Assembly (NCBI GenBank): GCA_964470965.1
Contig: CAYYIS010000005.1
Location: 88,057-152,056 of the forward strand
Source of the DNA: an uncultured Gemmatimonadota bacterium
GTDB lineage: Bacteria; JAAXHH01; JABIQT01
Reading direction: 5' to 3'
Length of the DNA stretch: 64,000 nucleotides
Positions 36,928 to 52,639 of this stretch are shown one piece after another. Position numbers and translations under genes: made by a program. Position 1 is the first letter of the stretch. Each line of letters starts with the position of its first letter. The notes below the pieces were generated by a model that saw only the letters and a program-made list of their open reading frames with translations, was not told where the DNA came from and did not search any database.

Positions 36928-37512
36928 TTACACGTGTATCCGTTCGAGGATGGAATGCAGACGTTCGTAATCGTCTTTGAGCAGACGGGCGACCTCTTTG
37001 CCAGCCCGAACCAGATAGTTTCCGTTTTCACCACGAGCCAGATAGGCATTGCGGATGGCTGCAATGGTGAGCTCATCGGACGGGACCCTGGTCTGGTTAA
37101 AAATTGGGCGGAGGTAATGGGATCGGTCCGTGAAACTCGCAATCTCTTCCGCGGAACAGAAATGCACAAAGCTGTGGATTTTGGGCGGTTGAGGCGGCAG
37201 GGACTGGTAAATACCCGTGTCATCTTTGTAGCCGATGATTAGCGAGGTGAATTCTGTGCGTAAAAGTTCAAATATCTGAGGCTGTTCGAGGCGCAGTTCG
37301 TCCTCTGTCTTCCCGTACGCCGTGGGCCTCCGATTCGGCTCCATGCTCTGAGTGGCCACGCTGTATACGATCGCATAGACAATCGGATAGCTGTCTATCT
37401 TGACATAGGCCCCGAAGGGAGGCGCGCCGTGTAGCACGCGGCTCTCTGCCGTGAACTCAATCGTGTTACTCTCAATTACCTCTCCCACATGCGGTTGGCC
37501 CTGCTCAGCCAT
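36928..37512 (-). CDS. HerA N-terminal (HAS-barrel)-like protein lacking the ATPase domain; degenerate P-loop
   Basis: 194 aa. N-terminus VGEVIESNTIEFTAESRVLHGAPPFGAYVKIDSYPIVYAIVYSV follows the HerA HAS-barrel pattern ([IV]G.VI...T.E...ER.V..G.YV...V.AL[IV]). P.QPP...A.EE block matches the HerA PDIPPF...EDEE strand. ELTIAAIRNAYLARGENG sits where the HerA Walker A (AILAATGSGKS) would be, and the protein ends about 70 aa later. Recalled from memory of HerA; needs HMM confirmation. Confidence 0.45.
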   Translation of the reverse strand: MAEQGQPHVGEVIESNTIEFTAESRVLHGAPPFGAYVKIDSYPIVYAIVYSVATQSMEPNRRPTAYGKTEDELRLEQPQIFELLRTEFTSLIIGYKDDTGIYQSLPPQPPKIHSFVHFCSAEEIASFTDRSHYLRPIFNQTRVPSDELTIAAIRNAYLARGENGNYLVRAGKEVARLLKDDYERLHSILERIHV

Positions 37513-37533
37513 TACTATCCTCCGTCATTTCCA

Positions 37534-38721
37534 TTAAATCAACAATCTGCGTTTCGAAATATTCTTGCGCGATACTTCGGATCGGACACCACCGATGACG
37601 TATGAATCGCTTAATAAACGATAGAACAACTCCCGGTCGGCTCCTCGGACAACCGCTTTCTCATGGGCCTCGGACAGGACAATCGGATATCCCTTTCCTT
37701 TTTCCACCTGGTCGCACACCGTGGCATGAACAAGATCCAAGAGTTTCGAATCCTGGGCCACCCATTCGGGTATTTCCACTCGGGCCACTTCGAAGCCCAC
37801 ATTAACATAGAAGAAATAAATTCGATGACGACCATATTCCTTCAGTATTTCGGATGTACTGCGGAACAGCACGGAACGGTCTCCAGGATTGTGGAGCACC
37901 CGCCCGAAGAGCACGCGGTCCGTCAAGCCTTCGATCACGGTGCAGGGAGGCCTGTCCGGATGGAGCGTGTGCTGCGGGCAGGCGTCGCAGGCCGGGACCT
38001 CATCTTCGGGGCACAGCCCCACGCGCAGGGCGTTGACTACATCCGCACTGTTGGGACTGCTGATGTACCCGGCCACCGGAACCCCCGCGTCGGCAAACCG
38101 ATCGAAGGCGCCCATCGTCTCTTTTAGCATCGGAATTTTGAAGTCGTCCGGCTTTCCTTCCAGCGTCCAGTCGATCAGGGTTCCATCGGACATACCCACC
38201 GCTTTCGTACGTGAGTCGGGAATTTCGTCTATCAAATCCGCCAGTGTCGTCAATTCCATCACACCGCGCCGGATCCCCACAACTTCGGCATTGATAGGTA
38301 TTCGCTTGCCGCTCCATTCCACATACAAATCGTCTTCATTGAAAAACAAACTCGGCTTGCTGGCAAGGATAGGACGTTCTCTGGTGCCATAGTGAATTAC
38401 GATGGTTCCGATGTTTATGAGATAGCAGTTAGACACTTCATGGCGATCCGGAAATAGCTGAGAGCCGTCCGTCGCCAGCAGCGTGATCTGGGCCGGGCGT
38501 TCGGGACGTTGTCTATGAATCGTCATCGGTTCAAGTATTTCGCCCACCAGCCAGCCGGGTTTGCTGCGTCCAATCTTTTCAGCAAGGAATCGCCAGTCCA
38601 CTGTCCAGCGCCGGGCTTCCTGGTACGCCCTTTCCAGTTTATTTCCGGAAGCACGCTGCACGGAATGTTGCTCCCGGACCATGATGCTAATCTGCTGTTT
38701 TGTCGCTATGTGATCAAGCAT
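37534..38721 (-). CDS. NurA-like RNase-H-fold nuclease
   Basis: 395 aa. LLATDGSQ (first DGS motif) at about residue 95. Acidic E about 70 aa later. Second DG[ST] motif VGMSDGTLIDW. C-terminal His (SEAHEK). Spacing resembles the NurA D-E-D-H catalytic arrangement. No Walker motifs. 22 nt upstream of the HerA-N-like gene on the same strand. Confidence 0.45.
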   Translation of the reverse strand: MLDHIATKQQISIMVREQHSVQRASGNKLERAYQEARRWTVDWRFLAEKIGRSKPGWLVGEILEPMTIHRQRPERPAQITLLATDGSQLFPDRHEVSNCYLINIGTIVIHYGTRERPILASKPSLFFNEDDLYVEWSGKRIPINAEVVGIRRGVMELTTLADLIDEIPDSRTKAVGMSDGTLIDWTLEGKPDDFKIPMLKETMGAFDRFADAGVPVAGYISSPNSADVVNALRVGLCPEDEVPACDACPQHTLHPDRPPCTVIEGLTDRVLFGRVLHNPGDRSVLFRSTSEILKEYGRHRIYFFYVNVGFEVARVEIPEWVAQDSKLLDLVHATVCDQVEKGKGYPIVLSEAHEKAVVRGADRELFYRLLSDSYVIGGVRSEVSRKNISKRRLLI

Positions 38722-43134: not shown

Positions 43135-44463
43135 TCATCCCACCAGCAAAAGTCTAAGATCCATGACATTGGTGCCGGTCGGTCCGGTTATGATAAGGTC
43201 ATTGAGCGGTTTGAAGAAGTGGTAGGAGTCGTTCTCGTTCAAATAGGCCTCCGCCTCCAGTCCCTGCGCCTTAGCCCGGCTGATGGTCTCCCCATCGGCG
43301 ATGGCTCCGGCGGCATCGGTCTGCCCATCAGTACCATCCGTACCGCCGCTTAAAACCACCACATCCTGCAATCCATCAATACCCATAGCCGCCGCAAGCG
43401 TAAACTCCTGGTTTCGTCCCCCCTTTCCCTTTCCCCGTATATTTACCGTAGTCTCTCCGCCGCAGATAATGCAGGCAGGGGCTTGAAACGGATTATCGGA
43501 AGACCGAATCTCCGCCGCAATTGCGGGGAACAACCTGGCCACTTCCCGCGTTTCTCCATCGATCGAACTCGACAGTATCATGGCGTTGAATCCGAGTTTT
43601 TCCGCTTCCTCCTTCGCGGCCAGGAGTGACCGGAAATTGGTCACGATAAGCACGTTCTGTACCCGATCAAACAGGGGATCACCCGGCTTGGGCGTATCAT
43701 CCGCGGTTCCGTTCAGCCCGGCTTTCAGATGGGCACCGACAGACTCAGGAAGCTGTTCCTGCAATCTATATCGCCCGATGATGCGATGGCATTCGGCAAA
43801 GGTGCTGGTATCCGGCACGGTGGGTCCGGATGCGATCACGTCCAGCAGGTCCCCGATCACATCGGACAGGATCAGGCTGACAACTTGCGCCGGCGCCGCA
43901 AGACGGGCGAGCTGGCCGCCTTTGACCTGAGAAATATGTTTGCGCAGGGTGTTCAATTCATTGATCGTAGCACCGCAGTCGAGCAAAAGCTGAGTGGTGG
44001 CCTGTTTCTCCGCCAGCGTCACGCCGGCCACAGGTAGCGGCAACAGGGCGGAACCACCGCCGGAAATCAGGCAAAGCAGAAGGTCACGCTCCGTAAGATT
44101 TTCAAGCAAACCGGTAATTTTCCGGGCGCCGGCCACGCCTGCCTCATCAGGAATGGGGTGCCCGGCTTCCGTAAGATGCACCCGCTGGACCGGCGCCAAG
44201 TGGGCGTATTTCACGTTTACCGCACCCGCGGAAACCCGGTCTCCGAGTATCTCTTCAACCGTCTGAGCCATTACGGCGGAGGCTTTACCAGTGCCAACCA
44301 CAAAAATCCGGTCGATGGCATTCAGATCATAATCCCGGCGATCAACACGAAGACGATCGCCCAGAACCGCAACCTTACGCTGGATTGCTTCCGCCGGATC
44401 AACAGCGGCCAGGCCCTTCTTAAAAATCTGATGTGCGGCTGTTCTCAATGAGGATTCTGACAT
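43135..44463 (-). CDS. Glycerate 2-kinase (MOFRL family)
   Basis: 442 aa. DUF4147/MOFRL architecture with conserved GxGKAS and GGETTV motifs (VVGTGKASAVMA, IICGGETTVNIRGKGKGGRNQE). Confidence 0.8.
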   Translation of the reverse strand: MSESSLRTAAHQIFKKGLAAVDPAEAIQRKVAVLGDRLRVDRRDYDLNAIDRIFVVGTGKASAVMAQTVEEILGDRVSAGAVNVKYAHLAPVQRVHLTEAGHPIPDEAGVAGARKITGLLENLTERDLLLCLISGGGSALLPLPVAGVTLAEKQATTQLLLDCGATINELNTLRKHISQVKGGQLARLAAPAQVVSLILSDVIGDLLDVIASGPTVPDTSTFAECHRIIGRYRLQEQLPESVGAHLKAGLNGTADDTPKPGDPLFDRVQNVLIVTNFRSLLAAKEEAEKLGFNAMILSSSIDGETREVARLFPAIAAEIRSSDNPFQAPACIICGGETTVNIRGKGKGGRNQEFTLAAAMGIDGLQDVVVLSGGTDGTDGQTDAAGAIADGETISRAKAQGLEAEAYLNENDSYHFFKPLNDLIITGPTGTNVMDLRLLLVG

Positions 44464-44490
44464 AGGGAGGGACGATCATCAGACAATGCG

Positions 44491-44739
44491 CTATTCCTTA
44501 GGCTCTTCGGACTTCTTTTCTTTGACTTTGGGAGGCGGAATGGAACGCTGTCGCGGATTCTTCTCTTCATACTCTACGATACGTTGAATTTCATTCTGGT
44601 AACCGTTCACCACGCGTTTGAAATCGCGAATGCCTTTGCCCAATCCCCTAGCAAGATGGGGAATCCGATCCGACCCGAACAAGATAAGGACGATCAGAAA
44701 AATAACCAGCATTTCTCCCGCGCCAATATCAAATATCAC
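44491..44739 (-). CDS. tatA: Twin-arginine translocase subunit TatA/E
   Basis: TM helix + amphipathic helix signature FDIGAGEMLVIFLIVLILFG..LPHLARGLGKGIRDFKR. Likely GTG start at 44739; the ORF-track ATG 44805 adds 22 residues. Acidic/Lys-rich C-tail. Confidence 0.75.
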   Translation of the reverse strand: MIFDIGAGEMLVIFLIVLILFGSDRIPHLARGLGKGIRDFKRVVNGYQNEIQRIVEYEEKNPRQRSIPPPKVKEKKSEEPKE

Positions 44740-45629
44740 AGTGTCATACTCCTCGTAGGAACTATCTTGATTCCAATCCGCATCTTGTGCTATGGAGGTT
44801 ACCAATCAATTTACACACATCCCATCATACCCGCAAGGAAAATGTCGGTCCCGTTCTAACAGCTTGACTTACATCCGCCCGGGCCACTAACTTGTCAGAA
44901 CGTTCGAAACATTCCTCCTGATTCTTGATACAATCATCTACAGGCGCCCACAGACTCTTGATTGGGGGTTCCCCGGTAGAACTTGGATCGAAAAGAGATA
45001 TCCGGTCTGTACGCTTTGGAACGGCGATCGGCATGGCATAGATCGTGGCTGAAGAATAACGAATGCGGTTCGGTCATCAATTCGGTCATCAAACCCTTTG
45101 AGAAAACCCTCGCTATAGCCCATATGGCTATGACCACCGCTTCTTCCCCATGGCGGAAAAATCATTAGAAGCGGCGCGCGAACGCTTTCCGCAGCGCCGC
45201 ACCGGATCTGGCCTTCAACCGCCAGATAGACTGAATTCGGCGCCAGCACACGGCGTCGAGTAGAGGGGACCAACAAAACCTGGATAAGACCGTGGTAGTA
45301 ACGTTAGCGTCATGAGAAATCCCCTCGGTGGACTTGGCCTTCAGGATCGCGGCCACAAATGGGTTTGAGCGAATCCCTTCACACGGGTAGAGTGTCGCGA
45401 CCTAAAAAAGCTGCGATTGGTAAGACTATGGGATTTTGAAGTCGCGTGTTTGTATTTGAAATCAACATCTGATCCAGTTCCGGAATCTGCTTGACTTGAC
45501 GGCCTTCGCGTTTCACATTCCAAGGAAGCCGAAGCGCACAGGAATGCTTGTAATGATATGATACACCCTTAAATTACCCGACTGCCGAAACTGGAATACA
45601 GTCCGATAAAATCAGAATTGGAGGAACAA

Positions 45630-47276
45630 ATGGCAGAGCGTATCTCCGTGTTGTTGATCGAAGACAACCCGATCCATGCCCGATTGATTCAGAACTTACT
45701 GGAAGAATCAACTGCCTCCGTCTTTGATCTTATCTCGGCCGATCGCCTGTCCACAGGGATCGAGCGACTAGACTCCGGCAAAATCGATGTCGTTCTTCTG
45801 GACCTGGTACTGCCGGACAGCCAGGAGATAAACACGCTGGAGCAGGTCCGCGCCGCCGCACCCGAGGTGCCTATCGTCATCCTGACCAGTCTGGATGATG
45901 TAACATTAGCCGCCAAAGCCGTGGAAGAAGGTGCCCAAGATTTTCTGATAAAAACCGAGACCAACAGCCAGACCCTGACCCGATCCATACACTACGCCAT
46001 TGAACGCACCCGGGCACAGAAAGGGGAGTGGGACGCCACCATGTTCCGCCTTGCCCAGCAACAGTTTCTCAAGGCGGCTCAGCTGATGAATCTCGATGTA
46101 AACGTGCAGGAACGCTTGTTGTTCCCGCAGCGGACCCACATCGTGACATTTCCGTTCCGAAGGGATGAGTATGACCAGGTGGAAACGGTCTTCGGTTATC
46201 GCGTGCAGCACCTGCTGACCATGGGACCCACCAAGGGCGGTATCCGATACCATACCGACGTCAACCTCGGCGAAGTTTCAGCGTTAGCCATGTGGATGAC
46301 CTGGAAGTGCGCCCTGATGAACCTTCCCTTCGGTGGCGCCAAAGGAGGCGTTCGCATCGACCCAACCGGACTGTCCCGACGCGAACTGCAACGCCTCACC
46401 CGCCGTTACACATCCGAAATAATAGATATCATAGGACCCGACAAAGACATCCCGGCCCCTGACATGGGCACGGACGAACAGGTCATGGCCTGGCTGATGG
46501 ATACGTACAACCAACAGGTAGGTCATACGGTACCTGGAGTCGTCACCGGCAAGCCGGTGGTCCTTGGCGGATCTCTTGGACGCCGCGAGGCCACGGGTCG
46601 CGGTCTGGTGTACCTGGTCGAAGCGGCCGCGGAACGAACCGGACTGAACCTGAACGGCGCAACTGCCGTAGTGCAGGGCTTCGGAAACGTCGGAAGTAGT
46701 ACCGCGCGTTTTCTGGAGGAAGACGGCACAAAGATACTCGCAGTCAGCGACATGACGACCGGTATCTACAATCCCAACGGCCTATCGGTTCAATCCCTGC
46801 TCGACTACACTGCGGAGAATCGGTTTCTGGAAGGTTATCCGGAAGGTGATGCGATCTCCAATGAAGATCTGCTGGAGTTGGAATGCGATGTACTGGCGCC
46901 CGCGGCACTGCAGAACCAGATCACATCAGCAAATGCAGACCGGGTTAAATGCAAGATCCTCGCTGAAGGCGCCAACGGTCCGACAACGCTGGAGGCGGAT
47001 GAAGTGCTCAACGAAAATGGTGTCTTCATCCTCCCCGATGTGCTGGGCAATGCGGGTGGTGTGACCGTGTCGTATTTCGAGTGGGTTCAGGATACCCAGA
47101 ATTACATGTGGACGCTGAAGGAAATCAACGATCGCCTGCATGCCATTCTTCTGGACGCGTTTGAACGTACCATACACCGAGCGGAGAGCACCGGTTTCGA
47201 CACGCGCACCTCAGCGTTGATCGAAGGTATCCAACGGGTAACCGAAGCCAAACTGCTACGCGGCGTGTTCCCTTAG
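45630..47276 (+). CDS. Response-regulator receiver domain fused to Glu/Leu/Phe/Val-type glutamate dehydrogenase
   Basis: N-terminal 120 aa canonical REC (acidic pair ED, phospho-acceptor Asp in VVLLDLVLPD, Thr in VILTS, Lys in LIKTE). Residues about 150-548 are an intact GDH (KGGIRYH, catalytic GGAKGG, NAD-binding QGFGNVGS). ATG 45630 is preceded by GGAGG; ORF-track TTG 45618 is in frame. Confidence 0.8.
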   Translation: MAERISVLLIEDNPIHARLIQNLLEESTASVFDLISADRLSTGIERLDSGKIDVVLLDLVLPDSQEINTLEQVRAAAPEVPIVILTSLDDVTLAAKAVEEGAQDFLIKTETNSQTLTRSIHYAIERTRAQKGEWDATMFRLAQQQFLKAAQLMNLDVNVQERLLFPQRTHIVTFPFRRDEYDQVETVFGYRVQHLLTMGPTKGGIRYHTDVNLGEVSALAMWMTWKCALMNLPFGGAKGGVRIDPTGLSRRELQRLTRRYTSEIIDIIGPDKDIPAPDMGTDEQVMAWLMDTYNQQVGHTVPGVVTGKPVVLGGSLGRREATGRGLVYLVEAAAERTGLNLNGATAVVQGFGNVGSSTARFLEEDGTKILAVSDMTTGIYNPNGLSVQSLLDYTAENRFLEGYPEGDAISNEDLLELECDVLAPAALQNQITSANADRVKCKILAEGANGPTTLEADEVLNENGVFILPDVLGNAGGVTVSYFEWVQDTQNYMWTLKEINDRLHAILLDAFERTIHRAESTGFDTRTSALIEGIQRVTEAKLLRGVFP

Positions 47277-47310
47277 ATCCACAATTTGATAAACAGGCCC
47301 AGGTGTATTT

Positions 47311-50292
47311 ATGTCCAACAATGATTTTGATTCCGGACTGGTCTGGCTGCTCAAAGTCTCCGGCCGGATTACGAGCGGCATAGTGATAACATTGTCGTTG
47401 CTGGTTCTGATCGGATGGCAATTCGAGGTGGCGGTTCTGAAGAGCATGGTCCAGCCCGGCCGTGTATCCATGAACCCAATGACGGCCGTTGAATTTCTGT
47501 TCTCCGGTGTCAGTCTGTGGCTTCTGCTACCCCAACCACTAACCGATAAACGTCGATGGATGGGGGTGGCCTGCGCCCTTGTCGTCATCCTCATTGCTGG
47601 CGCGCGCCTGGCAGATTTCCAATTGACCGGTACAGCGGCCATCGATGATTTACTGTTCGCCTCAAAGTTGAGCGGCAGCAGGATGAGCCCGGAATCGGCC
47701 TATACCTTCATCCTCATCGCATTTGTCCTGCTGATTCTCGACATCAAAATAGTAAATTACTGGTTTCCGCTGACCGTGGTCCTCGGTGTATCCATCATAG
47801 CCCTGCTGGCGCTCACCGGAGCAATCTACAGCACGCTGGTCGCCTATCGGATCGCCGGTGATATCGCCATTCCGCTGAATACGACCCTGGGCTTCGGCTT
47901 CCTTTGTATCGGTATTCTGTGCGCCCGGCCGTTCCGGGAACCGGCAGCGACCCTGATCAGCACTACCGCTGGTGGCATCATGGCCCGGCGGCTTCTGCCA
48001 GCGGCCTTTATTATTCCGCTTGTACTGGGCTGGGCCCAGTTTCAGGGACAACGATGGGGGCTGTACGGCATAGAATTCGGCTTCTCACTGTTCGCCCTGG
48101 GCAACGTCATTGCCTTCAATGTCCTTATCTGGTGGAACGCCCGCTCCCTGGGACGAATCGACGCGGAACGAACCAGGGTGGACCGTCAGCTTTACCGACA
48201 GAACGAGCTGCTCGAACAGACCGCCCACGACCTAGTACGCTCCCAGGAGGAACTGCAGGTTGCAAAGGATGCCGCCGAAAAAGCAAACAGGGCCAAGAGC
48301 GAATTTCTGGCCAACATGAGCCACGAAATCCGAACTCCGATGAACGGCATCATCGGCATGACACAACTACTGCTCAACACCAGGCTTTCTCCTCAGCAGA
48401 GGGAATACCTGCACCTTGTAGACCAATCTGCCGATGCGCTCCTTGTGCTGCTGAATGATATTCTCGATTTCTCCAAAATAGAGGCGGGACGGCTGGAACT
48501 GGAATCGATTCCCTTCAACCTGCGGGACACCGTGGGTGACACCCTTCAGAACCTTGGCATCGCCGCATCGGATAAGGGACTGGAGCTGGCCTCCCACATA
48601 CCTCAGGATATTCCGGACGCCCTGATCGGTGATCCGGGACGACTGCGCCAGATCGTGGTTAATCTGGTGGGCAATGGAATTAAGTTTACCGAGACCGGCG
48701 AGGTCGTGGTATACGTGGAAACGGAATCCCAAAAAGACACACAATGCTGCTTGAAATTTTCCGTCAGGGATACAGGCATCGGGATTCCTGAAGATAAGCA
48801 GGAGTTTATTTTCAACGTATTCAGCCAGGCCGATCAGTCTATGTCCCGACGCTTCGGAGGCACCGGCCTGGGGCTGGCCATCTCCTCCCAGCTCACTTCA
48901 ATGATGGACGGGCGTATCTGGGTCGAAAGCGAACCAGGTAAGGGAAGCACGTTCTACTTCACGGCGATCTTCGAACAACAGAATGTACCGGAACAGGAGC
49001 CGCTGCCCATATCGGACACATTGAAAGAAATGATGGTTCTGGTGGTGGATGACAATCACACCAATCGGCTTATTGTGGAAGAGATGCTGAAAAACTGGGG
49101 TATGCGCTCCTCCAGTGTGCCCGGCGGTGAAATTGGTATTCAAGCGATGGAACGTGCCATCGAATCCGGCCAGCCGTTCCCGCTCGTTCTGATCGATTTG
49201 ATGATGCCGGAAATGGACGGGTTCTCAATGGCGGAAGAAATCCGAAAACGTCCCGAGATGGCTGACACCACCCTGATCGCGCTATCTTCCGCCGGACGTC
49301 CCGAAGAAATGTCCAGGGGCCAGGAACTGGGCATCGCCCATATCTTGATAAAACCGGTGAAACAGTCAGACCTGTTCCATGCCGTAGCACACGCCTGTCA
49401 GACTATCGGCTCCGAAGAGTTGGCGGTGAATGCGCAGGATGAAGCGGCCCAGGTTCAGCGCCCACGGAAGATTCTGCTGACGGAAGACGGTATTGTCAAC
49501 CAGAAGGTGGCGGTAATGATGCTGGAGGCCCGCGGCCATACCGTTGCGATCGCCAACAACGGCCTAGAGGCGGTGGAGCGACTCAACCAGGAGCGGTTCG
49601 ACCTGGTTCTGATGGATGTTCAGATGCCGGAAATGGACGGACTCGAAGCAACGCGAGTGATTCGAACCATAGAAAATGAAACAGACACCCACACGCCGAT
49701 CATCGCCATGACAGCACATGTGATGAAAGGTGACCGGGAACGCTGCCTGAACGCCGGTATGGACGGCTACCTCTCTAAACCCATCAGGGCGGAAACACTC
49801 TATGGTATGATCGAGAGCCTTGTCGCGGATGGGGACGGGATGGCGGACGAGGCAGTCGTCCGGACGACCGGCCCTGGGATCCATCGGGCAGAATCAGGAA
49901 ACGACTTCGAGCAGGAGCAGGACCCGTTGGTATTGGATCCCAAGGAGCAGCATGTAGAACAACTGTTCAACTGGGATACCGCACTGGAGCAGCTAAACGG
50001 TAATGAGAAAGTGCTGAAAGATATTGCGGAAATGTTCATGGAGCAATACCCGAACCTGGTACAGGCGATCCGCGGCTCCATCGAAAATGAGGACATGCCT
50101 GAACTACGGCGATCCGCACACACCCTAAAAGGCTCCGCAGCCACTTTTTCCGCTGGACCGGTTGTAAAAGCCGCCTATCGTCTGGAGACCATGGGACGGG
50201 AAATGGACATCACCGACGTGGATTCAGCCCTGAAGGATCTGGATCGGGCGCTCGCGGAGCTCGCACCGGCTTTGCTGGCCAAAACAAACTAA
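47311..50292 (+). CDS. Hybrid sensor histidine kinase: multi-TM sensor - HisKA - HATPase_c - REC - REC - Hpt
   Basis: 993 aa. About 290-aa N-terminal domain with 7-8 TM helices. H-box [17 protein letters not shown]1/G2 boxes ([23 protein letters not shown]). Two receiver domains with conserved Asp ([22 protein letters not shown]). C-terminal Hpt ([10 protein letters not shown]). Starts 35 nt after the REC-GDH gene. Confidence 0.85.
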
Positions 50293-50348
50293 CCGGCAGC
50301 GTACCTAAAATTTGTCCTTGCACAGCGAATATTGTGTAAGAATTATTG

Positions 50349-50377
50349 TTGACAAATTCACTGGCCCTGCATAATGT
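50349..50377 (+). promoter_or_regulatory. Sigma70-like promoter upstream of katG
   Basis: TTGACA at 50349-50354 with a cATAATgt -10 region after a 15-17 nt spacer. About 80 nt of AT-rich leader before the katG ATG. Confidence 0.45.
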
Positions 50378-50386
50378 AAGAAATAA

Positions 50387-52639
<2,253 letters not shown>

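Follow-up and report, generated by a model that had tools for sequence, protein, structure and literature searches.

Among the response regulators with enzymatic outputs are CheB, in which an N-terminal receiver (REC) domain with a canonical pocket is fused to a methylesterase, and PleD and WspR, in which it is fused to a GGDEF domain; phosphorylation of the receiver aspartate relieves inhibition in CheB and drives dimerisation in PleD and WspR. Glutamate dehydrogenase (GDH), on the other side, connects carbon with nitrogen metabolism, and its known control in bacteria is transcriptional, allosteric or exerted via partner proteins. The hexameric enzymes of about 415 residues from Thermotoga maritima, Pyrococcus and Thermus (1b26, 1gtm and 3aog) carry no receiver, and their known control is allosteric or via partner subunits, as in the leucine-activated GdhA/GdhB hetero-hexamer 3aoe. 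Here we analyse a stretch of 64,000 nucleotides (nt) from a marine bacterium of the Gemmatimonadota (the window), in which a receiver is fused to a GDH of this type and is followed by a gene for a hybrid histidine kinase. Judged by sequence comparison, the two genes probably constitute a self-contained His-Asp-His-Asp phosphorelay, the terminal response regulator of which is the GDH itself, with catalysis being the property that is switched. As in the GarA/OdhI systems, which control GDH and 2-oxoglutarate dehydrogenase in Actinobacteria, phospho-signalling would then act post-translationally on the glutamate/2-oxoglutarate node; there, however, the Ser/Thr kinase PknG works together with an FHA adaptor, a protein of its own that binds the enzymes, whereas here the signal would travel by a His-Asp relay to a receiver in the same chain as the enzyme.

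The first-pass annotation of this DNA had read the fusion as a single 548-aa protein, with a canonical receiver ahead of an apparently competent dehydrogenase, and a scan with Pfam hidden Markov models (HMMs) bears out all three domains. Response_reg is matched at aa 7-114 (66.8 bits against a cut-off of 30.2), ELFV_dehydrog_N at aa 166-294 (178.5 bits, profile coverage 1-128 of 129) and ELFV_dehydrog at aa 313-545 (263 bits, profile coverage 1-241 of 241); the E-values of 1e-18 to 1e-78 exclude chance domain matches. The receiver pocket is complete (E11/D12, D58, T86, F105 and K108), and it does not become degenerate on alignment. In the enzyme part, the GGAKGG (aa 235-240, with the catalytic K238) and GFGNVG (aa 350-355) motifs are where they had been placed, the catalytic D278 is present, and the residues for the glutamate gamma-carboxylate are in place, namely K202 in GPTKGGIR and S481 in GGVTVSYFE, which we take to be the equivalents of K89 and S380 of C. 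symbiosum GDH. With catalytic and substrate residues intact, the GDH part does appear competent. It aligns end to end (aa 137-548) with the T. maritima enzyme 1b26 (E=5e-140, 53.5% identity), and the AlphaFold2 (AF2) model of the fusion resembles 1b26 in fold, with a Foldseek TM score of 0.87 normalised to the target. The protein is related to the NCBIfam equivalogs GdhB_Halo (NF041398; 488 bits against a cut-off of 620) and GdhA_Arch (NF040817; 486 against 750), yet lies outside both. As the start codon we chose the ATG at 45630 and not the TTG at 45618 because of the placement of the Shine-Dalgarno sequence GGAGGA (Table 1).

The fusion is a real, conserved gene. In a database survey with clustering at at least 70% identity, more than 120 clusters carry it, and when the best 120 (70-100% identity) were inspected, 119 were found to be 537-561 aa long with all three Pfam domains; the lone exception is a protein of 451 aa without a Response_reg match. 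A frameshift or a two-gene boundary between the receiver and GDH parts was looked for, and none was found, the same single open reading frame (ORF) being present in 119 of these 120 clusters. At the level of phyla and classes, the fusion occurs in Gemmatimonadota, Planctomycetota, Gammaproteobacteria, Alphaproteobacteria and Myxococcota. The source names of the clusters comprise Gemmatimonadota, Latescibacteria, Oceanospirillaceae/Amphritea/Pontibacterium, Pseudomaricurvus, Leisingera, a Roseobacteraceae plasmid and Gimesia/Planctomycetales, and the list is extended by species-representative genomes to Halomonas stenophila, Microbulbifer, Lujinxingia vulgaris, Pirellulales and Myxococcales. 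Cultured carriers exist in Halomonas, Pseudomaricurvus, Pontibacterium, Leisingera, Lujinxingia and Gimesia, with Halomonas stenophila CECT 7744, Pseudomaricurvus alcaniphilus and Lujinxingia vulgaris as examples.

Conservation within this family is unevenly distributed. Among 120 full-length members, E11, D12, D58 and K108 are invariant (120/120), position 86 holds T or S in 119 and position 105 holds Y or F in every one of the 120, while the mean top-residue frequency of the rest of the receiver is 0.68, compared with 0.86 for the GDH part. An invariant pocket within an only moderately conserved receiver is a signature of selection on phosphorylation chemistry. On the enzyme side, K202, K226, K238, D278 and S481, as well as the GxGxxG dinucleotide motif, are invariant in alignment A2, and this invariance of every catalytic residue argues that the family represented in the window is likely to be a working enzyme.

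The rarity of the architecture that the first-pass annotation had implied was overstated, in view of the number of clusters, of public records that name such proteins 'response regulator' or 'glutamate dehydrogenase (NAD(P)+)', and of published catalogues. P2CS listed GDH among the probable two-component enzymes in 2009 (PMC2716373), and the fusion of REC to standard metabolic enzymes is a trend noted from the censuses of Galperin et al. (PMC5847659). The architecture is therefore not new; it is widespread and already catalogued. In these automated and curated censuses, however, the same domain combination stands as catalogue entries only, with no partner kinase, evolutionary analysis or biochemistry attached. 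The companion statement, that no REC-GDH had been characterised, held up, as no biochemical or genetic study was found in the full-text literature, a coverage that leaves out most subscription journals. The PDB holds no chain spanning REC plus GDH, whether searched by sequence or by fold. REC-GDH is best filed with the enzymatic-output response regulators as an uncharacterised variant, outside any named regulator family; unlike in CheB, PleD and WspR, its output is a primary-metabolism oxidoreductase, presumably hexameric, and not a signalling enzyme.

The hybrid kinase gene lies directly downstream of the fusion, as had been claimed, although the gap measures 34 nt instead of the 35 given before, a trivial difference. 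Pfam and hydropathy agree with the earlier description of its 993-aa product as a kinase with a polytopic sensor, two receivers and a C-terminal Hpt domain, and its relay sites are all intact (H338, the N, G1 and G2 boxes, D629, D769 and H937). The protein resembles BarA, TorS, ArcB and LuxQ/LuxU in its HisKA-HATPase-REC-Hpt order, which suits a His-Asp-His-Asp relay that ends on a receiver in another protein; unlike in BarA, TorS, ArcB and LuxQ, there are two tandem receivers, the polytopic sensor is unannotated, and the terminal regulator is an enzyme and not a transcription factor. BarA and TorS are also its best NCBIfam matches, with scores (549 and 518 bits) below the respective equivalog cut-offs of 890 and 676.5 bits.

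We then compared the neighbourhoods of the fusion, with loci drawn from species-representative genomes, from metagenome contigs (by alignment of the REC-plus-linker part) and from exact look-ups with precomputed Pfam annotation, giving 76 distinct fusion proteins once the window's own is set aside. A same-strand hybrid kinase is directly adjacent to 43 of them; eight lack a kinase although 3.5 kb or more of flank is available on either side, and for the other 25 the flank is too short to tell. Kinase adjacency is thus found in 43 of 51 determinable loci (84%). The partner may be upstream or downstream of the fusion, but it is always on the same strand, usually with a gap of 8-110 nt. Its core is 55-75% identical to that of the window's kinase in nearly all loci (45-54% in three), and the tandem receivers are recognisably orthologous between loci (REC2 53-60%, REC1 37-49% identity), from which it follows that the transmitter has been co-inherited with the fusion. 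The relay residues are retained in the orthologous kinases as well: H338 in 47/47, D629 in 44/45, D769 in 45/45 and, in the fused Hpt, H937 in 37/38.

The position of the Hpt domain is telling in its own right. In six loci it is a separate gene of 116-125 aa between the HK-REC-REC kinase and REC-GDH, and in one further locus a lone Hpt gene is found 3' of the fusion; overall, the stand-alone Hpt genes that we detected encode about 116-148 aa (Table 1). When the flanking ORFs were clustered all against all, the kinase recurred in 43 loci and no other real family in more than 10; beyond the kinase and Hpt no conserved neighbour was seen among transporters, nitrogen regulators or a second GDH. 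No receiver or kinase gene lies near the REC-less sister GDHs. Because of the adjacency across phyla, the orthologous core, the split Hpt, the conserved relay sites, the lack of any other recurrent neighbour and the REC-less GDHs without a kinase, the pairing of the kinase/Hpt with REC-GDH, as first suggested from the window alone, is very likely. The assignment of the kinase as the cognate phosphodonor of the receiver comes from genomic inference only.

The sensor modules, by contrast with the transmitter, vary. Window-type polytopic sensors occur in loci with the kinase in the 'downstream' arrangement, dCache_1-HAMP-PAS in Gimesia, CHASE-GAF-PAS on the Roseobacteraceae plasmid and DUF4154 in Pseudomaricurvus. 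With dCache, CHASE or DUF4154 sensors in these further lineages, REC-GDH evidently serves different inputs from one organism to the next. On the Roseobacteraceae plasmid (L085, 1673-5866) the genes for E1alpha, E1beta and E2 of a branched-chain 2-oxoacid dehydrogenase and for a second ELFV dehydrogenase of 367 aa, the size of a leucine dehydrogenase, are located just 5' of the fusion; these neighbours hint at a tie to amino-acid catabolism on that replicon.

How the receiver might act on the enzyme can be approached from the AF2 model. A run on the monomer with an alignment of 82 sequences gave a mean predicted local distance difference test (pLDDT) score of 79 and a predicted TM score (pTM) of 0.78, and a single-sequence run gave an unusable model (pLDDT 35). 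The model is usable for the receiver (pLDDT about 90, with the alternating beta/alpha fold repeated five times), the linker and GDH domain II. In it, alpha5 is one long helix (aa 113-134) followed by GDH helix 1 at aa 137-153, so that, unlike in CheB, PleD and WspR, alpha5 appears to be joined directly to the enzyme N-terminus with no linker domain in between. The sequence at this junction, EWD(S/T)PMF, recurs as the N-terminus in the REC-less sister GDHs L015 and L016 and in the REC-less L011 and L014, which means that the receiver has been welded to the first residues of the enzyme without a spacer. We had considered the invariant E133-W134 as a fusion-specific hinge, and rejected this idea because the same motif is the native N-terminus of REC-less GDHs.

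After the pocket and beta3, the best conserved surface of the receiver is the alpha4-beta5-alpha5 face (mean top-residue frequencies of 0.84, 0.80 and 0.75, versus 0.63-0.66 for alpha1-alpha3). When 1.84 billion representatives were searched exhaustively with aa 1-175, the nearest non-GDH receivers (55-60% identity) proved to head REC-HisKA-HATPase, REC-GAF/PAS-HK and REC-PAS-GGDEF proteins, and the REC-HisKA and REC-PAS-GGDEF relatives are dimeric outputs driven via an alpha5 linker. We favour a mechanism based on receiver pairing because of these dimeric relatives and the conserved face. A signal sensed by the membrane-embedded polytopic domain would cause the kinase to autophosphorylate on H338, from where the phosphoryl group would pass to D629 or D769, then to H937 of the Hpt domain and finally to D58 of the GDH-fused receiver. 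As alpha5 is welded directly onto the enzyme N-terminus, phosphorylation of D58 may alter the alpha4-beta5-alpha5 face, and the change would most likely consist in receivers pairing between adjacent subunits of the hexamer. Such pairing could pull on the N-terminal helices of domain I and thereby change cleft closure or assembly, moving the enzyme from lower to higher activity or back and switching the flux between glutamate and 2-oxoglutarate plus ammonium without transcription. Our guess for the direction, made with low confidence, is activation of a catabolic GDH. The phosphotransfer route, catalysis as the controlled output, the dimerisation mechanism and the direction are the parts that we infer.

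Several points weigh against a phosphorelay that switches the catalysis of GDH. The two receivers of the kinase could also feed an unlinked regulator, and at six loci the fusion has its pocket intact but is not accompanied by a kinase. Domain I of the GDH has a pLDDT of 40-60 and there is no reliable inter-domain model; the sequence also does not tell the coenzyme preference or the physiological direction. Finally, there are relatives with an intact receiver and the same kinase/Hpt partner that have lost the catalytic lysine and the substrate residues. These divergent relatives, which came from the representative search (P0128, P0151, P0152, P0153, P0168, P0179 and P0217), retain the E-D-D-T-Y-K receiver pocket and the N-terminal EW motif. 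Their K202 is replaced by L, M, F, V or R, their K226 by Q or R (except in P0179, which keeps it) and their catalytic K238 by A, F, Q or M (except in P0128, which keeps it), and S481 and GxGxxG are often lost too. P0128, with K202 changed to L and S481 to A, is reminiscent of the non-glutamate ELFV dehydrogenases, and is encoded in a cluster with genes for a TRAP transporter, an amidohydrolase, a racemase and a D-Ser-dehydratase-like protein. The pseudo-GDH gene of L169 is followed by a CHASE-PAS-HK-REC-Hpt kinase and that of L170 by a CHASE-HK-REC kinase and a separate Hpt; at L172 a PAS-HK-REC-Hpt kinase is found within a TRAP transporter/amidohydrolase/racemase/D-Ser-dehydratase-like cluster. 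Since these pseudo-GDHs keep the relay, it must control something other than glutamate oxidation in those branches, and they keep alive both sensor or phosphate-sink models and regulatory-subunit or scaffold models for the GDH fold.

In the first of these models, the GDH moiety would be an input: binding of glutamate, 2-oxoglutarate or NAD(P)H would tune the gain or loss of phosphate by the receiver. REC-GDH would then serve as a phosphate sink or modulator that signals the metabolic state and tunes the hybrid kinase, while the real output of the kinase would be an unlinked regulator. Two receivers plus an Hpt domain are indeed typical of branched or reversible relays, the dead relatives show that catalysis is dispensable for some function of the module, and no DNA-binding regulator gene is encoded beside the pair. 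We nevertheless regard such an input role as unlikely, because the catalytic and substrate residues of the main family are invariant and its GDH part is the most conserved region, because the kinase/Hpt is the sole conserved neighbour and no alternative output is visible, and because a phosphate sink would not need an enzyme of 430 residues.

In the second model, the protein would be a trigger enzyme or regulatory subunit, in which phosphorylation controls an interaction of the GDH fold with another protein (a second canonical GDH, by co-assembly as in GdhA/GdhB of Thermus thermophilus, or some other target) and not its own turnover. Precedents exist, since RocG of B. subtilis binds GltC and GudB binds glutamate synthase, and the closest structures to the GDH part include, by their PDB titles, a hetero-hexameric GDH of T. 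thermophilus (3aoe) and a complex of glutamate synthase with GDH (7mfm, GltAB-GudB). The pseudo-GDH response regulators and the second ELFV dehydrogenase beside the fusion on the Roseobacteraceae plasmid fit this model as well. Against them stand the appearance of the main family as fully catalytic and the lack of a conserved second GDH or partner gene near the fusion, and we find such a role rather improbable.

The evolution of the fusion bears on a third possibility, namely that the receiver is a phosphorylation-independent structural appendage, needed for oligomerisation or stability, with the kinase signalling elsewhere. On a neighbour-joining tree of the GDH domain, which carries no support values and is hence only suggestive, all 77 fusions fall in one clade, with REC-less GDHs of Myxococcota and Actinomycetota, then of Nitrospira, as sisters. 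Two REC-less sequences, L011 and L014, are nested within this clade and still start with EWDSPMF; they adjoin a group of five (L009, L010, L012, L152 and L141). Three of these, L009, L010 and L012 from Pirellulales/Planctomycetota, are the only fusions among the 76 with a degenerate receiver (T86 changed to I, and the acidic pair ED to ES or EG.D), and no kinase was detected near them within 8 kb flanks for L010 and L012 and only about 2 kb for L009. In L152 the pocket is intact and the long flanks contain no kinase, and the flanks of L141 are too short for a kinase call. This looks like a decay series in which first the kinase, then the pocket and then the receiver was lost, as would be expected if the value of the receiver lay in its phosphorylation by that kinase. 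A structural role could be read from the retention of the REC fold in the Pirellulales subclade despite its degenerate pocket and undetected kinase, and from the six intact-pocket loci without an adjacent kinase. It is very improbable all the same, given the four pocket residues conserved in every member of the main family, the frequent same-strand adjacency to an orthologous kinase core, the split Hpt that stays beside the fusion, and the nested REC-less GDHs, which indicate that the enzyme is structurally independent of REC. An assembly or annotation artefact, whether from a chimeric contig or from a frameshift that merges two genes, can be dismissed, since the identical protein is present on independent contigs from different sources and has hundreds of same-length orthologues, including ones from complete chromosomes and cultured isolates.

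If REC-GDH is the output of the relay as we propose, glutamate catabolism or ammonium assimilation could be retuned within seconds of an external or membrane signal. More broadly, and with somewhat less than even confidence, we picture the locus as a horizontally mobile cassette of two, sometimes three, genes, in which a four-step His-Asp relay with swappable sensors directly controls the glutamate/2-oxoglutarate node without transcription. On this view it would be the first demonstrated case of two-component switching of a primary metabolic oxidoreductase, and the series of active, pseudo-GDH, degenerate-REC and REC-less forms suggests that the GDH hexamer could additionally have been co-opted as a phosphorylation-controlled scaffold. 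The pseudo-GDHs with a relay pose the question of what role a phosphorylation-controlled GDH-fold scaffold might have. The four-step relay, the swappable sensors, the spacer-free coupling and the series from active to REC-less forms make the system attractive: many marine and soil bacteria carry it, cultured genera among them, so that it is directly testable, it offers a compact model for receiver control of a large oligomeric enzyme, and it could become a portable part for engineering signal-controlled metabolism.

Table 1. Coordinates of the REC-GDH fusion gene, the adjacent kinase gene and related genes at other loci.
Feature	Sequence	Position	Strand	Remarks	Basis
Shine-Dalgarno GGAGGA	window	45621..45626	+	7 nt 5' of ATG at 45630	sequence reading
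REC-GDH fusion gene	window	45630..47276	+	548 aa + stop	ORF, Pfam
REC domain	window	45630..45989	+	aa 1-120	Pfam PF00072
REC acidic pair E11/D12	window	45660-45665	+		codons verified
REC phospho-acceptor D58	window	45801-45803	+		codon verified
REC T86	window	45885-45887	+		codon verified
REC aromatic switch F105	window	45942-45944	+		codon verified
REC K108	window	45951-45953	+		codon verified
REC helix alpha5 into GDH N-terminus	window	45966..46037	+	aa 113-134; E133-W134-D-x-x-M-F	AF2 model
GDH domain I (ELFV_dehydrog_N)	window	46125..46511	+	aa 166-294; K202, K226, K238, D278	Pfam PF02812
GDH catalytic K238 codon	window	46341-46343	+		
GDH domain II (ELFV_dehydrog, Rossmann fold)	window	46566..47264	+	aa 313-545; GFGNVG 350-355, S481	Pfam PF00208
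Hybrid sensor histidine kinase gene	window	47311..50292	+	993 aa + stop; 34 nt 3' of fusion gene	
Polytopic membrane sensor region	window	47311..48180	+	about 8 transmembrane helices, short loops, MASE-like; no Pfam model	hydropathy
Transmitter core, HisKA + HATPase_c	window	48292..48963	+	aa 328-393 and aa 440-551; N, G1, G2 boxes	Pfam
Kinase HisKA phospho-site H338	window	48322-48324	+		motif reading
Kinase receiver 1	window	49030..49380	+	D629 at 49195-49197	Pfam
Kinase receiver 2	window	49471..49812	+	aa 721-834; D769 at 49615-49617	Pfam
Hpt domain	window	50023..50262	+	aa 905-984; H937 at 50119-50121	Pfam PF01627, 53.9 bits
Terminator-like hairpin	window	50317..50340	+	3' of kinase stop; weak	such sites not above shuffled expectation
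Stand-alone Hpt gene	L008	7587-7943		beside REC-GDH	
Stand-alone Hpt gene	L137	3928-4305		beside REC-GDH	
Stand-alone Hpt gene	L151	7569-7934		beside REC-GDH	
Stand-alone Hpt gene	L156	3835-4185		beside REC-GDH	
Stand-alone Hpt gene	L159	4903-5253		beside REC-GDH	
Stand-alone Hpt gene	L164	3851-4201		beside REC-GDH	
Stand-alone Hpt gene	L135	8588-9034		no kinase within flanks	
Stand-alone Hpt gene	L170	4335-4697		beside REC-pseudo-GDH	
Pseudo-GDH response regulator gene	L169	573-2240			
Pseudo-GDH response regulator gene	L170	17-1657			
Pseudo-GDH response regulator gene	L172	6001-7629			

The sensor region of the window's kinase has its own relatives. About eight hydrophobic helices are predicted within aa 1-275, and a Pfam search of the region (E<=10) returned nothing meaningful, the best match being DUF4212 at E=0.06. 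Homologues of aa 1-300 (26-61% identity) are found N-terminal to plain histidine kinases and to PAS, GAF and GGDEF modules, and one more heads a protein annotated by JGI as a methyl-accepting chemotaxis protein (MCP). The region therefore looks like a MASE-type membrane sensor domain, as yet undescribed and without a model.

The intergenic stretch of about 820 nt upstream of the fusion gene (44806-45629) is unusually long. Its sole ORF, of 112 aa with a TTG start on the minus strand (44938-45276), is uncalled on the identical ENA contig, and a scan of 44400-50600, which includes this stretch, against Rfam gave no match. Scans for promoter and terminator consensus sequences gave counts no higher than in shuffles, and the hairpin 3' of the kinase stop, weak as it is, possibly marks the end of a two-gene operon. 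A gene for the catalase-peroxidase KatG (727 aa, 50456-52639) follows the kinase after 163 nt on the same strand. It is missing from the otherwise syntenic TARA relative L087, in which a TrkA-type K+ channel gene comes directly after the kinase, so that KatG is a lineage-specific insertion and lies outside the module. Farther away in the window (36928-38721, minus strand), a 395-aa protein with a NurA domain is encoded beside a 194-aa protein with a faint HAS-barrel (HerA-like) match, an assignment based on the gene calls of the identical contig L081. The two make up a bacterial NurA/HerA-like pair that has no connection with REC-GDH.

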